Of a DNA stretch of 64,000 bases, positions 2,716 to 61,055 are shown one piece after another (the first letter of the stretch is position 1; every line of letters starts with the position of its first letter). Origin of the DNA: Shigella phage ESh28; the sequence record ON528738, one strand, 5' to 3'. A program made the position numbers and the translations under genes. Below the pieces are notes generated by a model. That model did no database searches. It was not told the DNA's origin and saw nothing but the letters and a program-made list of their open reading frames with translations.

Positions 2716-3003
2716 ATGTTTATGACTACTTATTTTGACACCCGCAAAAATTTCTGTGAAGTGGTTTTCTCTAAGGCGCCTAAAGACCTTCCTGCTCATT
2801 TGCAACCTACCAGTGAATCGATTAAAAACTATGTTAATGTAGTCTGCCCTTTAGAGTTCCGTACTGTAAATGGGCGCGATACTTTAGCTATCACTAAACT
2901 CAATCGTGAAATTGACATTGACCCTTCAATTGCGCGTGAAATTAATATTTCTGATATTGGCGGCGGTAATGTTAAATCACACGGCTTTCAGATGAGGTTC
3001 TGA
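2716..3003 (+). CDS. hypothetical protein
   Basis: 95-aa ATG ORF, SD GAGGA. Confidence 0.5.
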   Translation: MFMTTYFDTRKNFCEVVFSKAPKDLPAHLQPTSESIKNYVNVVCPLEFRTVNGRDTLAITKLNREIDIDPSIAREINISDIGGGNVKSHGFQMRF

Positions 3004-3200
3004 TGAAATTCTTTTTAGGTCAAACTGTTGAATTAAAGGGAGTTGGTATACCTGGATTAATTTCTAAGGTTCTACCTCCATTTAAATGGAGTGGTGTTCA
3101 AATAAAAGAGGCTTATATTGTTTCCTGGGTAGATGGAAATGAAGACCTTCGTATGGGTGATGAATTATCTCCTATTTACGGATTAAAGGAATTAGTATGA
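3003..3200 (+). CDS. hypothetical protein
   Basis: 65-aa ORF, ATG overlaps upstream stop (TGATG), SD GAGG. Confidence 0.45.
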   Translation: MKFFLGQTVELKGVGIPGLISKVLPPFKWSGVQIKEAYIVSWVDGNEDLRMGDELSPIYGLKELV

Positions 3201-3403
3201 ATATAATTAATAAGATTTTTGGAATTCAGTACATTAAGGTCACATATAAAGTAACAGATAAAAATCCATATACTGATGAACATGAAGAACCACAAGTTAA
3301 GTCTATTATATTAGAAAAGGACCCTAACTGGCCAGTTGAATTTCGTCTTCCTTGCTATGGTCATTGGGCTGATGTTGAAATTATAAGTATTGAAAATGCC
3401 TGA
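3197..3403 (+). CDS. hypothetical protein
   Basis: 68-aa ORF, ATGA-type overlap with upstream gene, SD AAGGA. Confidence 0.45.
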   Translation: MNIINKIFGIQYIKVTYKVTDKNPYTDEHEEPQVKSIILEKDPNWPVEFRLPCYGHWADVEIISIENA

Positions 3404-3854
3404 GTTAGAGATTAGAAGCAATTTTAGATGGCCATCGTGTGCATTAAGTAATTTCGCCCAATGGCCTTTTGTTATGGATGGTATCCAATTTGGAGGTCTT
3501 GAAGGATTTCTCCAAGGATGTAAGGTGAAAAATGTTGAACAGCAACGTCGTGTATTTGGGTTATCCGGGCTTGCCGCCCAACAAGCTGGAAGGTCTTATG
3601 CTAGAGCTCAGGACCGTGGGACCCTCTTCTGGCTCGGAGTTCCGTTTTCAAGATACTCTCCAGCGTGGAAAGAATTATACACAAATGCGTATTTTGAGGC
3701 AGCGATTCAAAACAAGGGCTTTCGTGATGCATTACTAGCCTCGAAAGGAAAAGTTTTGAAGCATAGCATGGCTAGTGGTCTAACAAAAGATGATACAATA
3801 CTAACCGAAGCTGAATTTATTGATGTGTTAAACCTATTAAGAGACTCTCTATGA
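3396..3854 (+). CDS. NADAR / YbiA-like (DUF1768) protein, putative ADP-ribose or N-glycoside hydrolase
   Basis: motif ALSNFAQWPFVMDGIQF...EGFLQG resembles YbiA/NADAR signature DFSNFAxWPIxxDG...EHYFQA (recalled); track ORF starts at TTG 3390, first ATG 3396; GC content visibly higher than flanks. Confidence 0.55.
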   Translation: MPELEIRSNFRWPSCALSNFAQWPFVMDGIQFGGLEGFLQGCKVKNVEQQRRVFGLSGLAAQQAGRSYARAQDRGTLFWLGVPFSRYSPAWKELYTNAYFEAAIQNKGFRDALLASKGKVLKHSMASGLTKDDTILTEAEFIDVLNLLRDSL

Positions 3855-4483
3855 AGCCTACTATTTTGACTGATATTGACGGGGTGTGTTTAAGCTGGCA
3901 ATCGGGCCTTCCTTATTTTGCCCAAAAATATAATCTTCCGTTGGAACATATTTTAAAAATGATTCAGGACGAAAAATTTATTTCTCCTGGTAAGCTCTTT
4001 AATTGCGATGAAGAACTTGGTGTTAAATTAATCGAAAAGTATAATCGTTCAGATTTTATTCGTTATTTGTCTCCATATAAAGATGCTCTATGTGTAATTA
4101 ACAAATTAAAAGAAGATTATAATTTTGTAGCTGTTACAGCATTGGGTGATTCTATTGACGCTCTGCTGAATCGTCAATTTAATTTGAATGCTCTTTTTCC
4201 TGGTGCCTTCTCAGAAGTATTGATGTGTGGTCATGATTCTTCAAAAGAAGAGTTGTTCAAAAAGGCAAAAGAGAAATATAACGTAATTTGTTATATTGAC
4301 GATCTCGCTCACCACTGCGATCACGCGAGTGAAATATTAAATGTTCCTGTTTATTGGATGGCTCGAGGAGAGCGTGACAATATTCCAAAAACTGCGCAGC
4401 GAGTTTATACATGGAATGATGTAGAGAATAAGCTTTTCCATCGAAGGAAAATAAAGAAAGTTTTGATAGTGAAAAAGTTATAA
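3851..4483 (+). CDS. HAD-superfamily phosphatase (5'-nucleotidase-like)
   Basis: N-terminal ILTDIDGV (DxDGV motif I), downstream VTALGDS and YIDD motifs; 210 aa; ATGA overlap with upstream gene. Confidence 0.6.
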   Translation: MKPTILTDIDGVCLSWQSGLPYFAQKYNLPLEHILKMIQDEKFISPGKLFNCDEELGVKLIEKYNRSDFIRYLSPYKDALCVINKLKEDYNFVAVTALGDSIDALLNRQFNLNALFPGAFSEVLMCGHDSSKEELFKKAKEKYNVICYIDDLAHHCDHASEILNVPVYWMARGERDNIPKTAQRVYTWNDVENKLFHRRKIKKVLIVKKL

Positions 4484-4500
4484 AAGATGTAATTGAGAAG

Positions 4501-4686
4501 ATGATTAAAAACGATTCTTTTCCTTGGAACACTACCTGGAGAACTCCTGGATTTAATCCTTATAATCTATATCATCCATATCAGACGCATCCGTTTCAGA
4601 CATGGAACTATATTAAACCCGGTGGCATAGAGTATTTGTATAATAGACCTACTAGTGGTGATAATATTTTCCAAGGAGCATTCTAA
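4501..4686 (+). CDS. hypothetical small protein
   Basis: 61-aa ATG ORF, SD GAGAAG. Confidence 0.35.
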   Translation: MIKNDSFPWNTTWRTPGFNPYNLYHPYQTHPFQTWNYIKPGGIEYLYNRPTSGDNIFQGAF

Positions 4687-4955
4687 TGTTTGTCGTTCAC
4701 ACTATTTATGAAAATGAAGGTAATACTACACGTGATTACGGTCACGTAAATCAATTTTTTAGATGCAATCCAGAATTTCGAGCTCAAAAAGACGAACGAA
4801 TTTTTAAAAAATGTGTAGAGCAAGGTTTCATTTACGTCAAGCACTGGATGCAAGGAAATAAAGTTAGAACCACGTACCACAAGTCTTTGACTGAGCTTAA
4901 TGATGAATTGATTTATAATAGAGCTGTAAACCAAACTCTAAAGGATGAACAATGA
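4686..4955 (+). CDS. hypothetical protein (30.1-like)
   Basis: 89-aa ATG ORF, coupled to gene 30 start. Confidence 0.45.
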   Translation: MFVVHTIYENEGNTTRDYGHVNQFFRCNPEFRAQKDERIFKKCVEQGFIYVKHWMQGNKVRTTYHKSLTELNDELIYNRAVNQTLKDEQ

Positions 4956-6415
4956 TTCTTAAAATTCTGAACGAAATAGCATCTATTGGTTCAACTAAGC
5001 AGAAGCAAGCAATTCTTGAAAAGAATAAAGATAATGAATTGCTTAAACGAGTATATCGTCTGACTTATTCTCGTGGGTTACAGTATTATATCAAGAAATG
5101 GCCTAAACCTGGTATTGCTACCCAGAGTTTTGGAATGTTGACTCTTACCGATATGCTTGACTTCATTGAATTCACGTTAGCTACTCGGAAATTGACCGGA
5201 AATGCGGCAATTGAGGAATTAACTGGATATATTGCTGACGGTAAAAAAGATGATGTTGAAGTTTTGCGTCGGGTGATGATGCGAGACCTTGAATGCGGTG
5301 CTTCAGTATCTATTGCAAACAAAGTTTGGCCAGGTTTAATTCCTGAACAACCTCAAATGCTGGCAAGTTCTTATGATGAAAAAGGCATTAATAAGAATAT
5401 CAAATTTCCAGCATTTGCCCAATTAAAAGCTGATGGAGCTCGATGCTTTGCTGAAGTCAGAGGTGATGAATTAGATGATGTTCGTCTTTTATCACGAGCT
5501 GGTAATGAATATCTAGGATTAGATCTTCTCAAGGAAGAGTTAATCAAAATGACTGCAGAAGCTCGCCAGATTCATCCAGAAGGTGTGTTAATTGATGGCG
5601 AATTGGTATACCATGAGCAAGTTGAAAAGGAACCAGAAGGCCTAGATTTTCTTTTTGATGCTTATCCTGAAATTAGTAAAGCTAAAGAATTCGCCGAAGT
5701 AGCTGAATCACGTACTACTTCTAATGGAATCGCTAATAAATCTTTAAAGGGAACCATTTCCGAAAAAGAAGCACAATGCATGAAGTTTCAGGTCTGGGAC
5801 TATGTTCCATTAGTAGAAATATATGGTCTTCCAGCATTTCGTTTAAAATATGATGTACGTTTTTCTAAACTAGAACAAATGACATCAGGCTATGATAAAG
5901 TAATTTTAATTGAAAACCAGGTAGTAAATAACCTAGATGAAGCTAAGGTAATTTATAAAAAGTATATTGACCAAGGTCTTGAAGGTATTATTCTCAAAAA
6001 TATCGATGGATTATGGGAAAATGCTCGTTCAAAAAATCTTTATAAATTTAAAGAAGTAATTGATGTTGATTTAAAAATTGTAGGAATTTATCCTCACCGT
6101 AAAGACCCTACTAAAGCGGGTGGATTTATTCTTGAGTCAGAGTGTGGAAAAATTAAAGTAAATGCTGGTTCAGGCTTAAAAGATAAAGCTGGTGTAAAAT
6201 CGCATGAACTTGACCGTACTCGCATTATGGAAAACCAAAATTATTATATTGGAAAAATTCTAGAGTGCGAATGCAACGGTTGGTTAAAATCTGATGGCCG
6301 CACTGATTACGTTAAATTATTTCTTCCGATTGCGATTCGTTTACGTGAAGATAAAACTAAAGCTAATACATTCGAGGATGTATTTGGCGATTTTCATGAG
6401 GTAACTGGTTTATGA
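4952..6415 (+). CDS. 30: ATP-dependent DNA ligase gp30
   Basis: 487-aa ORF MILKILNEIASIGSTKQKQAILEKN..., matches recalled T4 DNA ligase sequence and length. Confidence 0.95.
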   Translation: MILKILNEIASIGSTKQKQAILEKNKDNELLKRVYRLTYSRGLQYYIKKWPKPGIATQSFGMLTLTDMLDFIEFTLATRKLTGNAAIEELTGYIADGKKDDVEVLRRVMMRDLECGASVSIANKVWPGLIPEQPQMLASSYDEKGINKNIKFPAFAQLKADGARCFAEVRGDELDDVRLLSRAGNEYLGLDLLKEELIKMTAEARQIHPEGVLIDGELVYHEQVEKEPEGLDFLFDAYPEISKAKEFAEVAESRTTSNGIANKSLKGTISEKEAQCMKFQVWDYVPLVEIYGLPAFRLKYDVRFSKLEQMTSGYDKVILIENQVVNNLDEAKVIYKKYIDQGLEGIILKNIDGLWENARSKNLYKFKEVIDVDLKIVGIYPHRKDPTKAGGFILESECGKIKVNAGSGLKDKAGVKSHELDRTRIMENQNYYIGKILECECNGWLKSDGRTDYVKLFLPIAIRLREDKTKANTFEDVFGDFHEVTGL

Positions 6416-6629: not shown

Positions 6630-6652
6630 GAATAAACACTAGAGAGGATATG

Positions 6653-8746
6653 ATGGAACTCATTACAGAATTATTTGACGAAGATACTACTCTTCCGATT
6701 ACAAACTTAAATCCAAAGAAGAAAATACCACAAATTTTTTCAGTTCATGTTGATGACGCAATTGAACAACCAGGCTTTCGTTTATGTACCTATACATCTG
6801 GAGGTGATACTAATCGCGATTTAAAGATGGGCGATAAAATGATGCATATTGTTCCTTTTACATTAACTGCTAAAGGTTCAATTGCTAAATTAAAAGGTCT
6901 TGGTCCAAGCCCAATTAATTATATCAATTCAGTTTTTACTGTTGCAATGCAAACAATGCGCCAGTATAAAATTGATGCTTGTATGCTTCGTATTCTTAAG
7001 TCTAAAACTGCTGGCCAAGCTCGACAAATTCAAGTTATTGCTGATAGACTTATCCGTAGTCGTTCAGGTGGCAGATACGTCCTTCTTAAGGAACTCTGGG
7101 ATTATGATAAAAAGTATGCATATATTCTTATACATCGCAAAAATGTATCACTAGAAGACATTCCAGGAGTTCCGGAAATTAGTACCGAGCTCTTTACTAA
7201 AGTTGAATCGAAGGTCGGTGATGTTTATATCAATAAAGATACTGGGGCTCAAGTAACTAAAAATGAGGCAATTGCAGCATCTATTGCACAAGAAAATGAT
7301 AAACGTTCTGACCAAGCTGTAATCGTTAAAGTTAAAATTTCACGTAGAGCAATTGCGCAAAGTCAATCATTGGAATCTTCTAGATTTGAAAGTGAATTAT
7401 TCCAGAAGTATGAATCTACCGCAGCTAATTTCAATAAACCTGCTACAGCTCCTTTAATTCCTGAAGCAGAAGAAATGAAGCTTGGAATTAATTCATTAGC
7501 TTCTAAAACTAAGGCAGCAAAAATTATTGCTGAAGGAACTGCAGATGAACTTCATTATGACTATAAATTCTTTTCAAAAAGTGAGGTTAATGAAGTTTCT
7601 GAAAAAATTAAAGATGTAATTCTTAATGCGATTAAAAATGAACCAACTACTTCAATAAAATGTTTAGAGAAATACGCAGCAGCTGTTAATCAATTATTTG
7701 AAGAATATAAAGATAACTGGCTTGATAAACATAATAAAACTCGTAAAGGACAGACAGATGAAGTCTGGGAAGAAATAACTAAAAATTCCTGGAACGCAGC
7801 AAAAACTAAATTCCTCAAACGAATGATTTATAGCTTTTCTGGAATTGGTGCAGGTCCAATGATTGATATTACTATTGCCCGTGATGGTTCTAAATATACT
7901 CCATCACAAAAGCGCGGCATTAGAGAGTATTGTGGTTCAGGATATACTGACATCAATAATCTTCTTTTAGGACGCTACAATCCAGAACGATATGATGTAA
8001 TGAGTGAAAAAGAAATTGAATCTGCTATAAATAACTTAGATTCAGCTTTTGAAAATGGTGACCGTATACCAGAAGGCATTACAGTTTATCGTGCTCAAAG
8101 TATGACTGCTCCTATATATGAAGCGTTAGTTAAAAATAAAGTGTTCTACTTCAGAAATTTTGTATCTACTTCTTTAACTCCTATCATTTTTGGACGTTTT
8201 GGAATCACACATGCTGGTATTGGTCTTTTAGAACCAGAAGCTCGCAATGAATTAACAGTTGATAAAAATGAAGAAGGAATAACTATTAATCCAAACGAAA
8301 TAAGAGCGTATAAAGAAAATCCTGAATACGTTAAAGTTCAAATAGGATGGGCAATTGATGGAGCTCATAAAGTTAATGTTGTATATCCAGGAAGTCTCGG
8401 AATAGCAACAGAAGCTGAAGTTATTCTACCGCGTGGATTGATGGTCAAAGTTAATAAAATAACTGATGCTTCTAATAATGACGGAACAACATCTAATAAT
8501 ACAAAACTCATTCAAGCTGAAGTTATGACCACGGAAGAGCTCACCGAATCGGTAATCTATGACGGAGACCATTTAATGGAAACCGGTGAAGTAGTTGCAA
8601 TGACAGGTGATATTGAAATAGACGACAGAGTTGACTTTGCATCATTTGTTTCATCAAATGTTAAACAGAAAGTAGAATCATCTCTTGGAATTATTGCGTC
8701 TTGCATAGATATTACAAACATGCCTTACAAGTTCGTTCAAGGATAA
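6653..8746 (+). CDS. alt: Alt ADP-ribosyltransferase (capsid-packaged), copy 1
   Basis: MELITELFDEDTTLPITNL... matches recalled T4 Alt; YRAQ / FVSTSL / EAEVILPRG (R-S-ExE ART motifs); ATG 6650 also possible. Confidence 0.9.
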   Translation: MELITELFDEDTTLPITNLNPKKKIPQIFSVHVDDAIEQPGFRLCTYTSGGDTNRDLKMGDKMMHIVPFTLTAKGSIAKLKGLGPSPINYINSVFTVAMQTMRQYKIDACMLRILKSKTAGQARQIQVIADRLIRSRSGGRYVLLKELWDYDKKYAYILIHRKNVSLEDIPGVPEISTELFTKVESKVGDVYINKDTGAQVTKNEAIAASIAQENDKRSDQAVIVKVKISRRAIAQSQSLESSRFESELFQKYESTAANFNKPATAPLIPEAEEMKLGINSLASKTKAAKIIAEGTADELHYDYKFFSKSEVNEVSEKIKDVILNAIKNEPTTSIKCLEKYAAAVNQLFEEYKDNWLDKHNKTRKGQTDEVWEEITKNSWNAAKTKFLKRMIYSFSGIGAGPMIDITIARDGSKYTPSQKRGIREYCGSGYTDINNLLLGRYNPERYDVMSEKEIESAINNLDSAFENGDRIPEGITVYRAQSMTAPIYEALVKNKVFYFRNFVSTSLTPIIFGRFGITHAGIGLLEPEARNELTVDKNEEGITINPNEIRAYKENPEYVKVQIGWAIDGAHKVNVVYPGSLGIATEAEVILPRGLMVKVNKITDASNNDGTTSNNTKLIQAEVMTTEELTESVIYDGDHLMETGEVVAMTGDIEIDDRVDFASFVSSNVKQKVESSLGIIASCIDITNMPYKFVQG

Positions 8747-8749
8747 ATC

Positions 8750-10807
8750 ATGGAACTTATTACAGAATTATTTGACGGCGCTTCGGCGCCGGTTGTTAAC
8801 TTAAATCCTAAGCATAAAATACCACAAATTTTTGCTATTCAAGCCGGTGAAGAAAGCGTTCTTCCTGGATTTAGATTTTGTACATACACCTCTGGCGGTG
8901 ATACGAATAAAAACGTTAAGCCAGGCGACAAAATGATGCATATCGTAATGATAGGTGTTAATGAAAAATTATCATTAGTTAAGCTTAAAAACTTGGGTGG
9001 AAATCCAATTGGCGTCATTAATGCTGTTTTTGATACTGCTCTTCAAACAATGAAACAGTATAAAATTGATGCATGCCTATTCCGCGTACTAAAAAGTAAA
9101 ACAAATGGCGCTGCTCGTCAAATGCAAGTTATTGCTGACCGTTTAGTACGTACTAAAGGAGCAGGTCGATATGTTCTTTTAAAGGAAATCTGGGACTATG
9201 ATAAGAAATATGCATATATTATGGTTTACCGTAAAAATGCCAATTTAGAAGACATTCCAGGTGTACCTCCTATTTCAACTGAGTTATTCACAAAAGTTGA
9301 ATCGAAAGTCGGTGATGTTTATGTAGATGTTAAAACAGGTAATGCTGTTCCTAAAGCTGTTGCTGTTGCTGCTTCTATTGCTTTAGAAAATGATAAGCGC
9401 ACGGACCAAGCTGTTATTCAGAAAACTAAAATTAGTCGTCGATTAGCAGCACAAGCTCAATATTCTACTGTTGATGCTTCACTTCAGGGTGATAGCTTCG
9501 CTGCTAAGAAATATCAAGAGTTTGAATCTAAAGTTCCGGTGTATAAAGCAGAAGGACCAATGAACTCTGGCGTTATTCAAATTGGTTCAAACTTCAGCAA
9601 AGGAGCTATAGGCGGTATGAGAAGCGCTTCTCGTTTTAAATCTAGTGATTATGAACTCGAAAGCTTCCGAAATCATATTGCATTAGCCCATGCACGTTTA
9701 CGTGATCCATCTATCAAGTTACAGAGCGATATAACATATCAAGGTTCTCAAGAATATTTAAAGAATAAAGAATTCTTTGATTATAAGACTGATAAAATTT
9801 TAAGCGATCTTGCTGATATTAATATTTCTAATAGCTTTGATGTTATTAAGAAAATTATCAATGATTTGGTTAAAGGTTCTAAAGCTACGCCAGATGAAAA
9901 GACAGCTATTATTCAATTTGTCATGAATGGCATTTATAAATTGATTAATGAATCTGCTGCTCAGGCATATGAATACGCAAGCACTGAAGTAACTCCAAAA
10001 GGATTAACTCAAGCTGAATCTGATGTAATTGAAGATTATTGTGCAGATTCATATGTTGAAATGAACTCGTTCCTTTTGGGTAAACCAGATTCTACCCGTG
10101 AAGAATATATGGAACGAGCTATTAAACATATTGAGACGCTTGATTCTGCATTCGCTAAAGGTTCAGTTCTTCCTCCAGGAACTACACTTTACCGTGGACA
10201 AGAAGTTACCTTTAAAACTTTGCGTCATAACATTGAAAATAAAATGTTCTATTTCAAGAACTTCGTATCGACATCACTTAAACCAAATATATTCGGTGAG
10301 CATGGTAAAAACTATATGGCTCTAGATGATTCCGGCGCAGTATTTTCTGGCGAAGGAGAAGGTTCTGTTGATGCAGAAGATTTGATGCATATGGGTAGTC
10401 ATTCTACATATGCTAATGAAGATGCTGAAACTAGCGTGGGTATGGTAATTAAAGGAGCTGAGCGAATTAAAGTTATCGTTCCGGGTCATTTATCAGGATT
10501 TCCATCAGAAGCTGAAGTTATTCTACCGCGTGGAATTTTACTGAAGATTAATAAAGTAAGTACTTACTTTATGAAAGAAACTGCTTATAACAAGTATCTA
10601 ATCGAAGGTACAATCGTTCCTCCTTCTGAACAATTAGAGGAATCAGTATATGATGGCGACCATCTAATGGAAACTGGTGAAGTTCGTCCAATGACTGGAT
10701 TTAATCAATTCCTTGTCGAAGAATCAAAAGAAGAGGAAAACGAAGTTTCTCAAATCTTAGCTTCTTTGGTTAACATTAACGGAATGTCTAAAAAGTTCAA
10801 AATGTAG
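8750..10807 (+). CDS. Alt-like ADP-ribosyltransferase paralog, copy 2
   Basis: 685 aa; N-terminus MELITELFDG and C-terminal ART core (YRGQ, FVSTSL, EAEVILPRG, YDGDHLMETGEV) conserved with copy 1, central region divergent. Confidence 0.85.
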   Translation: MELITELFDGASAPVVNLNPKHKIPQIFAIQAGEESVLPGFRFCTYTSGGDTNKNVKPGDKMMHIVMIGVNEKLSLVKLKNLGGNPIGVINAVFDTALQTMKQYKIDACLFRVLKSKTNGAARQMQVIADRLVRTKGAGRYVLLKEIWDYDKKYAYIMVYRKNANLEDIPGVPPISTELFTKVESKVGDVYVDVKTGNAVPKAVAVAASIALENDKRTDQAVIQKTKISRRLAAQAQYSTVDASLQGDSFAAKKYQEFESKVPVYKAEGPMNSGVIQIGSNFSKGAIGGMRSASRFKSSDYELESFRNHIALAHARLRDPSIKLQSDITYQGSQEYLKNKEFFDYKTDKILSDLADINISNSFDVIKKIINDLVKGSKATPDEKTAIIQFVMNGIYKLINESAAQAYEYASTEVTPKGLTQAESDVIEDYCADSYVEMNSFLLGKPDSTREEYMERAIKHIETLDSAFAKGSVLPPGTTLYRGQEVTFKTLRHNIENKMFYFKNFVSTSLKPNIFGEHGKNYMALDDSGAVFSGEGEGSVDAEDLMHMGSHSTYANEDAETSVGMVIKGAERIKVIVPGHLSGFPSEAEVILPRGILLKINKVSTYFMKETAYNKYLIEGTIVPPSEQLEESVYDGDHLMETGEVRPMTGFNQFLVEESKEEENEVSQILASLVNINGMSKKFKM

Positions 10808-26362: not shown

Positions 26363-27928
26363 TTAGATACCTTTAACATATACACGTCTAAAGTAAGCGT
26401 TTTTACCAAGGCTGTTCAGGATAGAAGGCATACCACTCTGAATGCGAGAAGCCGGAGCCTGAGCAGCGGATTCTGCAAATGGGTTGATACCGATACCGTA
26501 ACGAGTTTTGAATCCCATTACTGGTTGGAAGTTCTTCGGATCGGAACCACGCAGCGGAGTCAGAGCTACATATGGAGCATAGTAAATACCAGCATCCATT
26601 TCGTTCGGACCTTTATAACCTACAGTGAAATAATCCTGTTTAGCATACTGGTCGATATATACACGGTATTTACCACCCAGAACACCAGCAAATACTGACT
26701 TGGTAGTATCAGTGTTAAAGCCGGTAGCCAGACCCTGTGCAGCATAAGAAATGCCGGTATCAACTGAAGCCAGAACGTTAACTACGTTACGGGAAGCGAT
26801 AATGAAGTTACCTTCACCACGACCAGTCTGACGAGCAATTTCAACTGCTTCTTTGTCAATCTGGAACAACAGAGCTTTAAAGGATTCACCTGCCCAGCGA
26901 GCACCACGAATATCGATTGGGTCCTGGAAGTCAAATACACCAGCTTTAGAACCCGGAGTCAGGGTCATACCAGATTTACCAACCTGAGCTGAGTAGTTAA
27001 TCCAATCAACAACTTCACGGTTGATTTCCAGCATGATTTCTGTAGCCAGAATACCAGACAGTTCAGCATCAGCATCCATACCGTGAACAGCGCGGAGGTC
27101 CTGTGCTAATTCGATAGAGTAAGCAGCTTTCAGCTGGCGAGATTTAGCTTCGATAACTTGTTTATCGATACGGAAGCCCATTTCATTCCATGGGTTATCG
27201 GTAGAACCGTTGAAACCTTCCTGGAGTTCAGCGATAGAAGTAGCCATACCTTCAGCGATTTCTACCAGTACACCAGCTTCCATTTGTTTCTTAATTTCAG
27301 CATCTAATTTAGCTGCGTCAGATGCAGTAGAACTAATTGTTACTTGAGCAGAAGCCTGCAGATACACAGTACCAGTGTCCTGGAAGAAGTGAGTATAGAT
27401 ATCACCTACTGTGGTTTGTGTGCTAGCAGCCAGAGCTGTGAATTTCTTAGCAGCACCCTGACCAGAGAACATTGCATCTGGACCATACATTGGGTGGAAT
27501 GCTTCTTTAGCACCGGCAGCGATTGGGTCTTTACCGTATACTGCACGCAGTGCGAATACCTGACCGGTCGGGCTGTTCATCGGCTGAACACCACAAATAT
27601 CGAAAGCAATCAGGTTAGGAATAGCACGACGTACCATACCCATAACAGCTGGGCCAATCTGAGTTACTGCGCCAGAAGTCTGACCTGCAGCGATGTTGGT
27701 AGCATTGTAACCGTGGTCACCACCGATTTCAGCTTCTGTTAAGAAAGAACCGAATGCCTGGGCAATTTTTTCGTCTTTATATTCCGGAGCTGTCTGGAAA
27801 TCTTTTTCCTGGTTTTCAAAGATTTTAGCGATAATCGCTTGTTTGCTATTAGCAATTTCCGGTAAACCTTCACCTTCCAGTAATGGCTTCCATTTGTTCA
27901 AAAGTTCAGCTTTAGTTTTGATAGTCAT
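26363..27928 (-). CDS. 23: major capsid protein gp23
   Basis: 521 aa equals T4 gp23; N-terminus MTIKTKAELLNKWKPLLEGEG...; elevated GC typical of highly expressed T4 gene. Confidence 0.95.
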   Translation of the reverse strand: MTIKTKAELLNKWKPLLEGEGLPEIANSKQAIIAKIFENQEKDFQTAPEYKDEKIAQAFGSFLTEAEIGGDHGYNATNIAAGQTSGAVTQIGPAVMGMVRRAIPNLIAFDICGVQPMNSPTGQVFALRAVYGKDPIAAGAKEAFHPMYGPDAMFSGQGAAKKFTALAASTQTTVGDIYTHFFQDTGTVYLQASAQVTISSTASDAAKLDAEIKKQMEAGVLVEIAEGMATSIAELQEGFNGSTDNPWNEMGFRIDKQVIEAKSRQLKAAYSIELAQDLRAVHGMDADAELSGILATEIMLEINREVVDWINYSAQVGKSGMTLTPGSKAGVFDFQDPIDIRGARWAGESFKALLFQIDKEAVEIARQTGRGEGNFIIASRNVVNVLASVDTGISYAAQGLATGFNTDTTKSVFAGVLGGKYRVYIDQYAKQDYFTVGYKGPNEMDAGIYYAPYVALTPLRGSDPKNFQPVMGFKTRYGIGINPFAESAAQAPASRIQSGMPSILNSLGKNAYFRRVYVKGI

Positions 27929-60224: not shown

Positions 60225-60297
60225 TGGGAATTAGCCAAGTTGGTAAGGCATAGCACTTTGACTGCTAGATGCAAAGGTTCGAGTCCTTTATTCCCAG
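60225..60297 (+). tRNA. tRNA-Gln (anticodon UUG)
   Basis: cloverleaf folded by eye: acceptor TGGGAAT/ATTCCCA, anticodon loop CTTTGAC, T-arm GGTTCGAGTCC. Confidence 0.85.
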
Positions 60298-60298
60298 C

Positions 60299-60385
60299 GC
60301 GAGAATGGTCAAATTGGTAAAGGCACAGCACTTAAAATGCTGCGGAATGATTTCCTTGTGGGTTCGAGTCCCACTTCTCGCACCA
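60299..60385 (+). tRNA. tRNA-Leu (anticodon UAA), type II with long variable arm
   Basis: acceptor GCGAGAA/TTCTCGC, anticodon loop CTTAAAA, T-arm GGTTCGAGTCC, CCA encoded. Confidence 0.85.
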
Positions 60386-60390
60386 AATTT

Positions 60391-60464
<74 letters not shown>

Positions 60465-60474
60465 ATTTAATTTA

Positions 60475-60548
60475 CTCCGTGTAGCTCAGTTTGGTAGAGC
60501 GTCTGCTTTGGGAGCAGAATGTCGCAGGTTCAAATCCTGCCGTGGAGA
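60475..60548 (+). tRNA. tRNA-Pro (anticodon UGG)
   Basis: D-arm GCTCAGTTTGGTAGAGC, anticodon stem-loop TCTGC-TTTGGGA-GCAGA, T-arm GCAGGTTCAAATCCTGC. Confidence 0.8.
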
Positions 60549-60550
60549 CT

Positions 60551-60640
60551 GGAGGCGTGGCAGAGTGGTTTAATGCACCGGTCTTGAAAACCGGCAGTCG
60601 CTCCGGCGACTCATAGGTTCAAATCCTATCGCCTCCGCCA
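60551..60640 (+). tRNA. tRNA-Ser (anticodon UGA), type II
   Basis: acceptor GGAGGCG/CGCCTCC, anticodon loop CTTGAAA, long variable arm, T-arm GGTTCAAATCC, CCA encoded. Confidence 0.85.
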
Positions 60641-60645
60641 GTTTT

Positions 60646-60721
60646 GCTGATTTAGCTCAGTAGGTAGAGCAACTCACTTGTAATGAGAAGGTCGGCGGTT
60701 CGATTCCGTCAATCAGCACCA
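60646..60721 (+). tRNA. tRNA-Thr (anticodon UGU)
   Basis: acceptor GCTGATT/AATCAGC, anticodon loop CTTGTAA, T-arm GGTTCGATTCC, CCA encoded. Confidence 0.85.
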
Positions 60722-60722
60722 A

Positions 60723-60797
60723 GGCCCTGTAGCTGGAAGGTTCAAGCAAGCGACTCATAATCGCCAGATGGTGGTTCAATTCCACCCAGGGCCACCA
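60723..60797 (+). tRNA. tRNA with CAU anticodon (Ile2-type by analogy with T4 tRNA-Ile, or Met)
   Basis: acceptor GGCCCTG/CAGGGCC, anticodon loop CTCATAA, T-arm GGTGGTTCAATTCCACC, CCA encoded. Confidence 0.75.
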
Positions 60798-60809
60798 AAT
60801 TATGAATTA

Positions 60810-60896
60810 GGGGAGTTATCCCGTAGAGGTAGCGGTGTGGACTGTAAATCCATTGTCATTGCGACTCGGGTGGTTCGACTCCATCACTCCCCACCA
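60810..60896 (+). tRNA. tRNA-Tyr (anticodon GUA), type II
   Basis: acceptor GGGGAGT/ACTCCCC, anticodon stem-loop TGGA-CTGTAAA-TCCA, long variable arm, T-arm GGTGGTTCGACTCCATC, CCA encoded. Confidence 0.7.
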
Positions 60897-60900
60897 ATTT

Positions 60901-60975
60901 GGATGTGTAGCTCAATGGCAGAGCGATCGCCTGTTAAGCGATTGGTTATAGGTTCGAATCCTATCACGTCCGCCA
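60901..60975 (+). tRNA. tRNA-Asn (anticodon GUU)
   Basis: acceptor GGATGTG/CACGTCC, D-arm GCTCAATGGCAGAGC, anticodon loop CTGTTAA, T-arm ATAGGTTCGAATCCTAT, CCA encoded. Confidence 0.8.
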
Positions 60976-60979
60976 AATC

Positions 60980-61055
60980 CGAGGCATAGCTCAGAAGGAA
61001 GAGCAAGGACCTTCTAAGTCCTAGGTCGTAGGTTCGATCCCTACTGCCTCGACCA
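60980..61055 (+). tRNA. tRNA-Arg (anticodon UCU)
   Basis: acceptor CGAGGCA/TGCCTCG, D-arm GCTCAGAAGGAAGAGC, anticodon loop CTTCTAA, T-arm GTAGGTTCGATCCCTAC, CCA encoded. Confidence 0.85.

Follow-up and report, generated by a model that had tools for sequence, protein, structure and literature searches.

Shigella phage ESh28 encodes an orthologue of the T4 anti-DarT factor AdfN next to a frameshifted HAD-type phosphatase gene

INTRODUCTION

The product of phage T4 gene 30.3 has been described as AdfN, the "anti-DarT factor NADAR", and is both necessary and sufficient for the resistance of T4 and T2 to DarTG1 (Johannesman et al., bioRxiv 10.1101/2024.07.11.602962). Deletion of adfN in either phage lowers plaquing on hosts with DarTG1 by ∼4 logs, ectopic AdfN fully rescues RB69 and this rescue is lost in the E36A and K43A variants; moreover, purified AdfN strips ADP-ribose from DarT1-modified DNA, and the RB69 allele, which is devoid of the last 15 residues, is inactive (bioRxiv 10.1101/2024.07.11.602962). 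UniProt names the T4 protein (NADAR_BPT4) 'Anti-DarT factor NADAR'. In vitro, T4 gp30.3 hydrolyses guanosine-ADPr and not thymidine-ADPr, and guanosine-ADPr is also a substrate of Escherichia coli YbiA (Toxins 2024, PMC11125620). The ybiA gene belongs to the host and sits in an operon under LexA control, and its product has been linked to riboflavin-intermediate N-glycosidase activity. However, T4 NADAR does not rescue uninfected E. coli from DarT1 toxicity (PMC11125620), and its activity therefore appears to be context-dependent, which the AdfN preprint ascribes to the hydroxymethylated DNA of the T-even phages (bioRxiv 10.1101/2024.07.11.602962).

Here, we analysed a stretch of 64,000 nucleotides from Shigella phage ESh28 (record ON528738), referred to as the window. 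The original prediction, made from the letters of this stretch, was that a GC-rich NADAR/YbiA-like gene and an overlapping HAD-type phosphatase gene form a two-enzyme module. The counter-defence role of AdfN-type proteins was already published (2024-2025), and it is re-derived here from the raw sequence. The best overall explanation, which we hold with high confidence, is that gene 30.3 encodes an AdfN acting against DarT1, and that gene 30.2 encodes a HAD enzyme that is a neighbour of the ligase and not a partner of AdfN.

RESULTS

Gene 30.3 is the T4 adfN orthologue

The segment is Tequatrovirus (T4-like phage) DNA, 98-99% identical to Tequatrovirus genomes over positions 3000-5000, and it shares with them the T4-collinear order 31.2...30.4-30.3-30.2-30.1-30-alt. 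The features of the locus are listed in Table 1.

Table 1. Coordinates of the 30.3/30.2 region and of the alt genes in the window
Feature	Position	Strand	Description or basis
Gene 30.4	3197-3403		8-nt overlap with the start of 30.3
Gene 30.3 (adfN)	3396..3854	+	Full-length 152 aa, ATG start; predicted NADAR-fold DNA ADP-ribosylglycohydrolase
30.4/30.3 overlap, 8 nt	3396..3403	+	Gene coordinates
Gene 30.2, frameshift-truncated allele	3851..4483	+	210 aa; HAD core and helical cap
ATGA stop/start overlap 30.3/30.2, 4 nt	3851..3854	+	Direct sequence reading
Run of four T (1-nt deletion truncating 30.2)	4434..4437	+	Comparison with relatives
Leftover ORF, C-terminal tail of native gp30.2	4501..4686	+	61 aa; sequence match to full-length gp30.2 P0116
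Alt-like ADP-ribosyltransferase gene	6650-8746		PF03496 match
Alt-like ADP-ribosyltransferase gene	8750-10807		PF03496 match

The translation of gene 30.3 opens with MPELEIRSNFRWPSCALSNFAQWPFVMDGIQFGGLEGFLQGCKV... and matches the Pfam family Phage_30_3 (PF08010) with E=3.5e-70 and a score of 234.6 bits (cutoff 36). The protein itself gave no match to the Pfam NADAR family (PF08719). Among its relatives, 24 of the 52 members of the gp30.3 family match PF08719 (best E=1.5e-7), and the family profile matches YbiA (PDB 2b3w) with E=0.0037 over the SNFA...DG...E..Q..KF motif. Single-sequence searches of gp30.3 and gp30.2 against the PDB sequences returned only noise, NCBIfam gave no match for either protein, and the PHROGs matches were to families of unknown function, with a weak polynucleotide-kinase match for gp30.2 only.

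The AlphaFold2 model of gp30.3 (mean pLDDT 93.7) contains strands 3-6, 25-27, 30-32, 76-79, 82-85 and 120-123 with surrounding helices. Its top three Foldseek matches in the PDB are YbiA 2b3w (E=1.7e-5, TM 0.70) and the NADARs 8bau and 8bat; besides these three, no PDB match rose above noise or reached a probability of ≥0.97. The window protein keeps the catalytic residues E36 and K43 and the phage-clade H123, none of which varies among 52 homologues. In the model, H123 falls within the last strand (120-123), where phage NADARs are reported to carry His. Finally, the window protein is 97% identical to T4 gp30.3 across all 152 residues. The substitutions P2S, V53I, L114Q and M125I all fall outside the invariant columns of the 52-homologue alignment, and the C-terminus (...LNLLRDSL), which forms helix 138-151 in the model, is exactly the T4 ending. 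By its locus, near-identity, fold, catalytic residues and full length, gene 30.3 is the orthologue of T4 adfN.

Around the gene, the neighbours 30.4 and 30.2 have no Pfam match, and a scan for promoters and terminators gave no difference from shuffled sequence. No DarT gene adjoins 30.3, the nearest ADP-ribosyltransferases being the Alt-type PF03496 genes 2.8 kb downstream; 30.3 is therefore an orphan antitoxin-like gene and not part of a toxin-antitoxin system. An internal ORF (3532-3738, the "30.3'" of T4) was considered as part of the feature and rejected, because its conservation is below that of the main frame and the T4 version is longer.

GC content of gene 30.3

Gene 30.3 has a GC content of 42.5%, compared with a mean of 36.0% (sd 3.8) for the 79 ORFs, and a GC3 of 32.7%, compared with 24.5% (sd 6.2). 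It ranks fourth; two of the three ORFs above it are artefacts inside the tRNA cluster, which makes its true rank second of 77, and the sole real ORF with a higher value is a 521-aa ORF at 26363-27928. The best 300-nt interval within the gene reaches 46.7%, in the top 2% of all such intervals, and at gene length 30.3 falls in the top 5%; the flanking genes 30.4 and 30.2 stand at 30.9% and 34.3%. The GC excess seen originally is thus real but moderate, whereas the horizontal acquisition that it was taken to suggest is not proven by GC alone. As proof of a recent transfer we rejected it, because the gene stands no more than +1.7 sd above the mean, the share of GC3 in the excess is matched by that of GC1 and GC2 (amino-acid composition), and orthologues hold the same locus in deeply divergent T4-like phages.

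Proposed function of the ESh28 allele

The enzymatic activity and the anti-DarTG1 phenotype of the ESh28 allele can be inferred from those of the 97%-identical T4 protein, for which the reversal of DarT-type DNA ADP-ribosylation, originally offered as a conjecture, has been demonstrated experimentally. The gene 30.3 product would be a stand-alone N-glycosidase with the NADAR fold, produced at an early stage of infection. In a host with DarT1, this toxin would ADP-ribosylate guanines in the phage DNA and block its replication, and AdfN would hydrolyse the guanine-ribose bond, freeing ADP-ribose and restoring the template. AdfN would thereby act as an 'orphan antitoxin' that stands in for the host DarG1 (NADAR) antitoxin, without binding DarT1. 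Thymidine-linked ADP-ribose would be left in place, and DarTG2 would therefore not be countered.

In the HIDEN-SEQ transposon screen of T4 under DarTG1, gene 30.3 has a log2FC of -7.25. Insertions in 30.4 are mildly depleted (log2FC -1.79, padj 0.014), a pattern that fits polarity on 30.3 or a disturbed coupling to it.

Gene 30.2 encodes a HAD-type enzyme

The ORF that overlaps the end of gene 30.3 opens with MKPTILTDIDGVCL, a DxDGV motif, and had been called a HAD-type phosphatase. Taking DxDx(T/V) for motif I, S/T for motif II, K for motif III and DD/ExD for motif IV, we found all four HAD motifs in gp30.2 (D8-I-D10-G-V, T96, K132 and D150-D151), each of them upstream of the frameshift described below. 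Among 49 homologues, each of these residues shows either no variation or a conservation of at least 90%. Residues 1-196 make up an intact Rossmann-like HAD core fold with a helical cap. Motifs and fold agree with the prediction. At E≤1, no HAD HMM of Pfam or NCBIfam matched the 210-aa protein or full-length P0116, and PF00702 was reached by only 13 of 49 relatives (best E=3.5e-4). The 5'(3')-deoxyribonucleotidases appear to be the closest relatives of gp30.2, with other HAD phosphatases scoring almost equally. We regard gp30.2 as a phosphatase-type enzyme of the HAD superfamily, whose most likely activity is on small-molecule phosphomonoesters.

The length of 210 aa is not that of the native gene but a frameshift product, a point missed originally. 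Native 30.2 has 837 bp and encodes 278 aa in T4, RB51, ECML-363, CAM-21 and wV7. In the window, one T is missing from a T5 run (GCTTTTCC versus GCTTTTTCC), at a site where phage T4 itself has six T in another codon context. The frame shifts after residue 196, and the final 14 residues (HRRKIKKVLIVKKL) are read in the wrong frame. The leftover ORF downstream (MIKNDSFPWNTTWRTPGFNPYN...), in a frame different from that of the truncated 30.2, corresponds to residues ∼219-279 of full-length gp30.2 P0116. This tail is predicted to be disordered (pLDDT <50 for 228-279) and is absent from many relatives. All that the frameshift has removed is one helix and this disordered tail, which is labile in evolution; the catalytic core is kept.

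We then have to consider that the frameshift might be a homopolymer error of sequencing or assembly, the phage really encoding an intact 278-aa gp30.2. In favour of this, just one T has gone from a T5 run, and 30.2 is intact in all the closest genomes. In a megablast of the 66-nt site against the phage collection, the 40 records listed of the 184 matching all differ from the window by one position (98.5%), and none of the 184 is identical to it across the site or reaches 99%; in the records beyond those listed, a gap in the T run and a SNP are not separable. An exact-pattern count in IMG/VR found no match for the four-T version and only two for the T5 version, too few Tequatrovirus contigs for inference. 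However, proteins deposited separately for Shigella phage ESh28, Shigella phage Sf25 and Escherichia phage 232Ecol030PP carry the identical frameshifted tail. Moreover, gp30.2 shows further natural truncations and many naturally short orthologues (196-220 aa), and the loss of the tail therefore looks tolerated. An artefact is a serious possibility, although we consider a genuine deletion the likelier case.

DISCUSSION

Gene 30.2 is a neighbour of the DNA ligase gene

That 30.3 and 30.2 overlap, as first described, is correct, and the 30.2 ATG is preceded, at a distance of 7-12 nt, by an AAGAGA stretch that resembles a Shine-Dalgarno sequence. The question is whether this arrangement has a functional meaning. 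We regard as improbable the broader idea that the order NADAR, HAD and DNA ligase, which about half of the T4-like phages share, reflects a functional link in which gp30.2 is a second, so far unrecognised counter-defence or nucleotide-salvage enzyme. Under such a link, the phosphoester from which gp30.2 takes the phosphate might be a nucleotide or an ADP-ribose derivative arising from DNA de-ADP-ribosylation or ligation, or alternatively gp30.2 might counter a defence system not yet screened; the tail loss in the ESh28 lineage would then mark ongoing adaptation.

The stricter form, in which the coupled HAD enzyme processes the ADP-ribose-type product of the NADAR, or counter-defence needs both proteins, is very improbable. 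Besides the ATGA overlap, it draws on the finding that a gp30.3-type NADAR lies 0-1250 bp from the HAD gene in 37 of 78 T4-like HAD loci, always upstream and on the same strand, including loci of very divergent phages whose two proteins share no more than 40-50% identity with those of the window. However, stop/start overlaps are routine here, occurring also at 30.5/30.4, 30.4/30.3, 30.1/30 and 30/alt.1, as a rule along the cluster. The NADAR is absent within 6 kb in the other 41 HAD loci, and in at least 10 of these genomes it lies ∼57 kb away, amid unrelated small ORFs and with no adjoining HAD gene. Conversely, only 19 of 80 NADAR loci contain the HAD gene, whose constant neighbour is DNA ligase (72 of 78 loci). 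The genetic evidence points in the same direction: insertions in T4 30.2 (71 sites) are neutral under DarTG1 in HIDEN-SEQ (log2FC -0.12, p=0.61), in contrast to those in 30.3, and AdfN without a partner rescues RB69 and deribosylates DNA in vitro. In ESh28 itself, the 30.2 product is cut short. Being a pyrophosphate diester, free ADP-ribose would by established HAD chemistry not serve as a phosphomonoester substrate, which would also argue against a shared pathway. The two-enzyme module of the original prediction is thus not supported, and gene 30.2, which codes for a widely conserved HAD enzyme, is best seen as a gene conserved next to that of DNA ligase and not as one that works with AdfN.

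Other substrates of gp30.3

Alt-type enzymes modify protein arginines, and NADARs are not known to act on the ADP-ribosyl-arginine linkage. The two PF03496 genes predicted downstream of 30.3 are there (42% mutual identity), although their proximity is without demonstrated functional meaning. It is most improbable that the main substrates of gp30.3 are soluble ADP-ribose derivatives or other N-ribosides and not DNA, or that the protein reverses the phage Alt/Mod modifications. In favour of such a role are the two nearby alt paralogues, the failure of T4 NADAR to detoxify DarT1 in uninfected cells (PMC11125620), and a 2022 comparative-genomics survey, which suggested that phage NADARs prefer soluble ADPr derivatives and noted that T4-like NADAR genes are expressed early together with ARTs. 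As a main function it is already refuted by published data, since the removal of guanine-ADPr from DNA and the DarTG1-specific phenotype were established by direct genetics and biochemistry and alt insertions are neutral under DarTG1 in the T4 transposon screen. Immune signalling molecules and, as for YbiA, riboflavin-pathway intermediates would be examples of such other substrates.

Comparison with known systems

The apparent nearest relatives of gp30.2 belong to the NT5C family PF06941 (cdN/mdN 2jao and 2i7d; Staphylococcus epidermidis 3bwv), at 14-21% identity; compared with these, Tequatrovirus gp30.2 has an extra disordered tail, which is the part lost in the window. For gp30.3, the best structural match is E. 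coli YbiA (PF08719, NADAR/DUF1768), which has the N-terminal SNFA...DG...E..Q..KF motif in common with it at 16% identity, but whose residue at the last-strand position is Glu. The DarTG1 antitoxin DarG1, also a NADAR (for example Geobacter lovleyi, PDB 8bat; E. coli C7), has the same fold, and the same hydrolysis of guanine-ADPr in DNA would be expected of the window protein. However, the two are only ∼15% identical, the adjacent DarT gene of that system is absent from the window, and the third catalytic position is Asp in the DarG1-type (BC4488) NADARs, whereas it is His in the phage clade. T4 AdfN is far closer: it occupies the same site between 30.4 and 30.2, has the same E36/K43/H123 and the full-length C-terminal helix, and differs from the window allele by the four substitutions. 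Finally, RB69 gp30.3 is an orthologue at the same locus in which a 1-nt insertion drops the last 15 residues, that is, the terminal helix, leaving the phage DarTG1-sensitive. As the window allele is intact, unlike that of RB69, ESh28 is predicted to resist hosts carrying DarTG1.

Gene pair and locus

Over bases 3000-5000, the window shares 98-99% identity with many Tequatrovirus (T4-like) genomes, among them ECML-363, CAM-21, wV7, RB51 and RB14, and the gene order on the + strand (31.2, 31.1, 31, rIII, 30.9...30.4, 30.3, 30.2, 30.1, 30 (DNA ligase), alt.1, alt) is that of the annotated T4 and RB51 records. This identifies the overlapping ORFs of the original prediction as T4 genes 30.3 and 30.2. 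Both were read in the sequence as described: the first product contains the motif ALSNFAQWPFVMDGIQFGGLEGFLQGCK, the second starts with MKPTILTDIDGV, and the TGA stop of the former and the ATG of the latter share ATGA. The two Alt-type ADP-ribosyltransferase genes expected about 3 kb downstream are also present, 2.8 kb away, and their products share 42% identity. T4 has a single alt and two short remnants (alt.-1 and alt.-2), whereas RB51 carries the same two full genes as the window, the second annotated alt.-2. A functional link to the alt genes was not supported.

Features of the window and of the compared loci
Feature	Position	Description
rIII / 30.9 stretch	1136-1782	GC-rich
Gene 30.3 (adfN)	3396-3854 (+)	152 aa, NADAR fold
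Internal ORF "30.3'"	3532-3738	out of frame
Gene 30.2	3851-4483 (+)	210 aa, HAD fold
T run in gene 30.2	4434-4437	one T missing
Remnant of gene 30.2	4501-4686	orphaned C-terminal part
Alt-like paralogue 1	6650-8746	698 aa, full-length, PF03496
Alt-like paralogue 2	8750-10807	685 aa, full-length, PF03496; in tandem with paralogue 1
521-aa ORF	26363-27928	highest GC after removal of artefacts
tRNA cluster	60225-61055	Gln, Leu, Gly, Pro, Ser, Thr, Met/CAU, Tyr, Asn, Arg
Spurious GC-rich ORFs	60269-60484, 60768-60989	
gp30.2-type HAD gene	around locus position 6000-8200	loci L006-L083 (n=78)

Gene 30.3 encodes a NADAR

The gene 30.3 protein is 97% identical to T4 gp30.3 and matches PF08010 (Phage_30_3, E=3.5e-70). 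The Pfam NADAR model PF08719 was not matched by this protein itself and was matched by 24 of 52 gp30.3 homologues (best E=1.5e-7). The family profile found E. coli YbiA (2b3w) over the N-terminal motif (E=0.0037). An AlphaFold2 model (mean pLDDT 93.7) gave only three high-probability PDB matches, to YbiA and the NADARs of Phytophthora (8bau) and Geobacter lovleyi (8bat), all others being noise; 8bat is a DarG1 antitoxin (bioRxiv 10.1101/2024.07.11.602962). Thus, the PF08010, profile and fold matches bear out a NADAR/YbiA-like protein. In an alignment of the 52 homologues, the least similar at 36% identity, every sequence has S18, N19, F20, E36, G37, F38, Q40, K43, H123, T134 and T137. H123 is part of the final beta-strand of the model, and its position is held by Glu in YbiA-type proteins, Asp in DarT-linked NADARs and His in phage NADARs.

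The internal ORF is the counterpart of "30.3'" in the T4 annotation. It has 90% identity to that ORF, less than the 97% of the main frame, falls 7 aa short of it in length, and seems not to be under selection. The 152-aa gp30.3 was filed in a 90%-identity protein cluster represented by a 279-aa gp30.2, and some collection matches join PF08010 to domains of neighbouring genes (P0014-P0016, P0074, P0107), which suggests that fused or read-through gene calls connect neighbours in the clustering.

Base composition

The GC content of gene 30.3 had been taken as a sign of horizontal acquisition. An excess exists: GC is 42.5% and GC3 32.7%, against means of 36.0% (sd 3.8) and 24.5% (sd 6.2) for the 79 window ORFs, and the richest 300-nt window within it falls in the top 2% for the 64 kb. 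Of the three ORFs outranking it, two are artefacts inside the ten-tRNA cluster, itself among the most GC-rich stretches; without them, only the 521-aa ORF is ahead, a candidate for the major capsid protein in view of its length, which equals that of the T4 protein. However, the excess is modest and is poor evidence for acquisition. GC1 and GC2 are raised along with GC3, so amino-acid composition accounts for much of it, and the rIII / 30.9 stretch equals gene 30.3 in gene-length windows, so the rise is not unique in the early cluster. Moreover, gp30.3 orthologues are found at this locus even in T4-like phages that have diverged widely, and any transfer is therefore old. An ancient capture is plausible, since phage NADARs are nearest to DarG1-type antitoxins in a published phylogeny (bioRxiv 10.1101/2024.07.11.602962).

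Gene 30.2 and the question of a module

The gene 30.2 protein matched no Pfam or NCBIfam model. The predicted HAD-type enzyme is nonetheless supported by four HAD motifs conserved in 49 homologues (D8-x-D10-G-V, T96, K132, D150-D151) and by 103 Foldseek PDB matches to the gp30.2 model at E<=1e-3, HAD-superfamily throughout among the matches listed. The best PDB match of the family profile was cytosolic deoxyribonucleotidase 2jao (E=0.026), and 8 of the 49 relatives weakly matched PF06941 (NT5C).

The pair had been proposed to form a two-enzyme module, an idea that we tested by genomic context, T4 genetics and AdfN sufficiency (AdfN being the gene 30.3 protein). Among 78 viral contigs with a gp30.2-type HAD gene, 37 had a gp30.3-type NADAR gene within 6 kb, always upstream on the same strand (gaps 0-1250 bp), and 41 had none within that distance. 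In at least 10 of these 41 genomes, the NADAR gene lies ~57 kb off, amid unrelated small ORFs and with no adjoining HAD gene; conversely, of 80 loci with the NADAR gene, just 19 also have the gp30.2-type HAD gene. DNA ligase gene 30 lies directly downstream of the HAD gene in 72 of the 78 T4-like loci, and the phages concerned diverge widely. Given the distant or absent NADARs and the constant ligase neighbour, the adjacency reflects a conserved 31...30 block, with the NADAR gene as a variable occupant. The shared ATGA is not special, since stop/start overlaps also occur at 30.5/30.4, 30.4/30.3, 30.1/30 and 30/alt.1.

In the T4 transposon screen HIDEN-SEQ (bioRxiv 10.1101/2025.11.20.689424), 30.3 and 30.2 are both non-essential on K-12. 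Under DarTG1, a toxin-antitoxin defence, 30.2 insertions (71 sites) are neutral (log2FC -0.12, p=0.61) and 30.4 insertions mildly depleted (log2FC -1.79), which suggests polarity or coupling that acts towards 30.3 rather than away from it. Finally, AdfN alone suffices in vivo and in vitro (bioRxiv 10.1101/2024.07.11.602962; PMC11825919). Taken together, these results do not support a module. Judged from its profile matches and neighbours, gp30.2 is a probable ligase-linked HAD enzyme resembling NT5C. Our literature search found no paper mentioning gp30.2, a protein without known phenotype that is conserved beside the ligase in very divergent phages.

A probable frameshifted gene 30.2 allele

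The original prediction overlooked that gene 30.2 is frameshifted. In T4, RB51, ECML-363, CAM-21 and wV7 it spans 837 bp (278 aa), up to the 30.1 start; in the window, one T of a T5 run is missing, and the frame changes after residue 196, adding 14 foreign residues and orphaning the C-terminal part. The identical 210-aa product is in GenBank (Shigella phage ESh28), and the frameshifted tail recurs in Shigella phage Sf25 and Escherichia phage 232Ecol030PP proteins, which makes a real allele more probable than a sequencing error. The model of P0116, a full-length relative (94% identical), has a confident core (1-196), one helix (207-220) and a disordered tail (228-279). Since many orthologues are naturally 196-220 aa without a tail, and tail length varies across relatives, the frameshift would strip a dispensable-looking part and leave the catalytic domain. 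Independent truncations at 220-241 aa (among P0218, P0223, P0227 and P0115) mark the tail as evolutionarily labile, and Shigella phage CT01 has a 310-aa variant with an internal duplication of ~30 aa.

Comparison with characterized AdfN proteins

Schuller et al. 2023 (PMC11543638) showed that NADARs remove the ADP-ribose that DarT1 attaches to guanine. In vitro, T4 gp30.3 hydrolyses guanosine-ADPr and not thymidine-ADPr (Toxins 2024, PMC11125620); Methods 4.2 of that paper gives the construct as 'gp30.3; residues 1-208', against 152 aa in the T4 record. Johannesman, Carlson and LeRoux, who renamed the gene adfN, reported that its deletion makes T4 and T2 about 10^4-fold DarTG1-sensitive, that ectopic AdfN fully rescues RB69 unless it carries E36A or K43A, and that purified AdfN strips ADP-ribose from DarT1-modified DNA and does not bind DarT1 (bioRxiv 10.1101/2024.07.11.602962; PMC11825919). 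The depletion of 30.3 insertions under DarTG1 in HIDEN-SEQ (log2FC -7.25; bioRxiv 10.1101/2025.11.20.689424) confirms this role, and UniProt names the T4 protein "Anti-DarT factor NADAR". The suggested reversal of DarT modification was therefore right, but already demonstrated and named; only the truncated 30.2 allele and the description of gp30.2 as an NT5C-like, ligase-linked HAD enzyme are new here. The RB69 adfN allele is inactive, a frameshift costing it the last 15 residues (bioRxiv 10.1101/2024.07.11.602962; PMC11825919), whereas the window allele, in which catalytic E36 and K43, H123 and the whole terminal helix are kept, is expected to be active.
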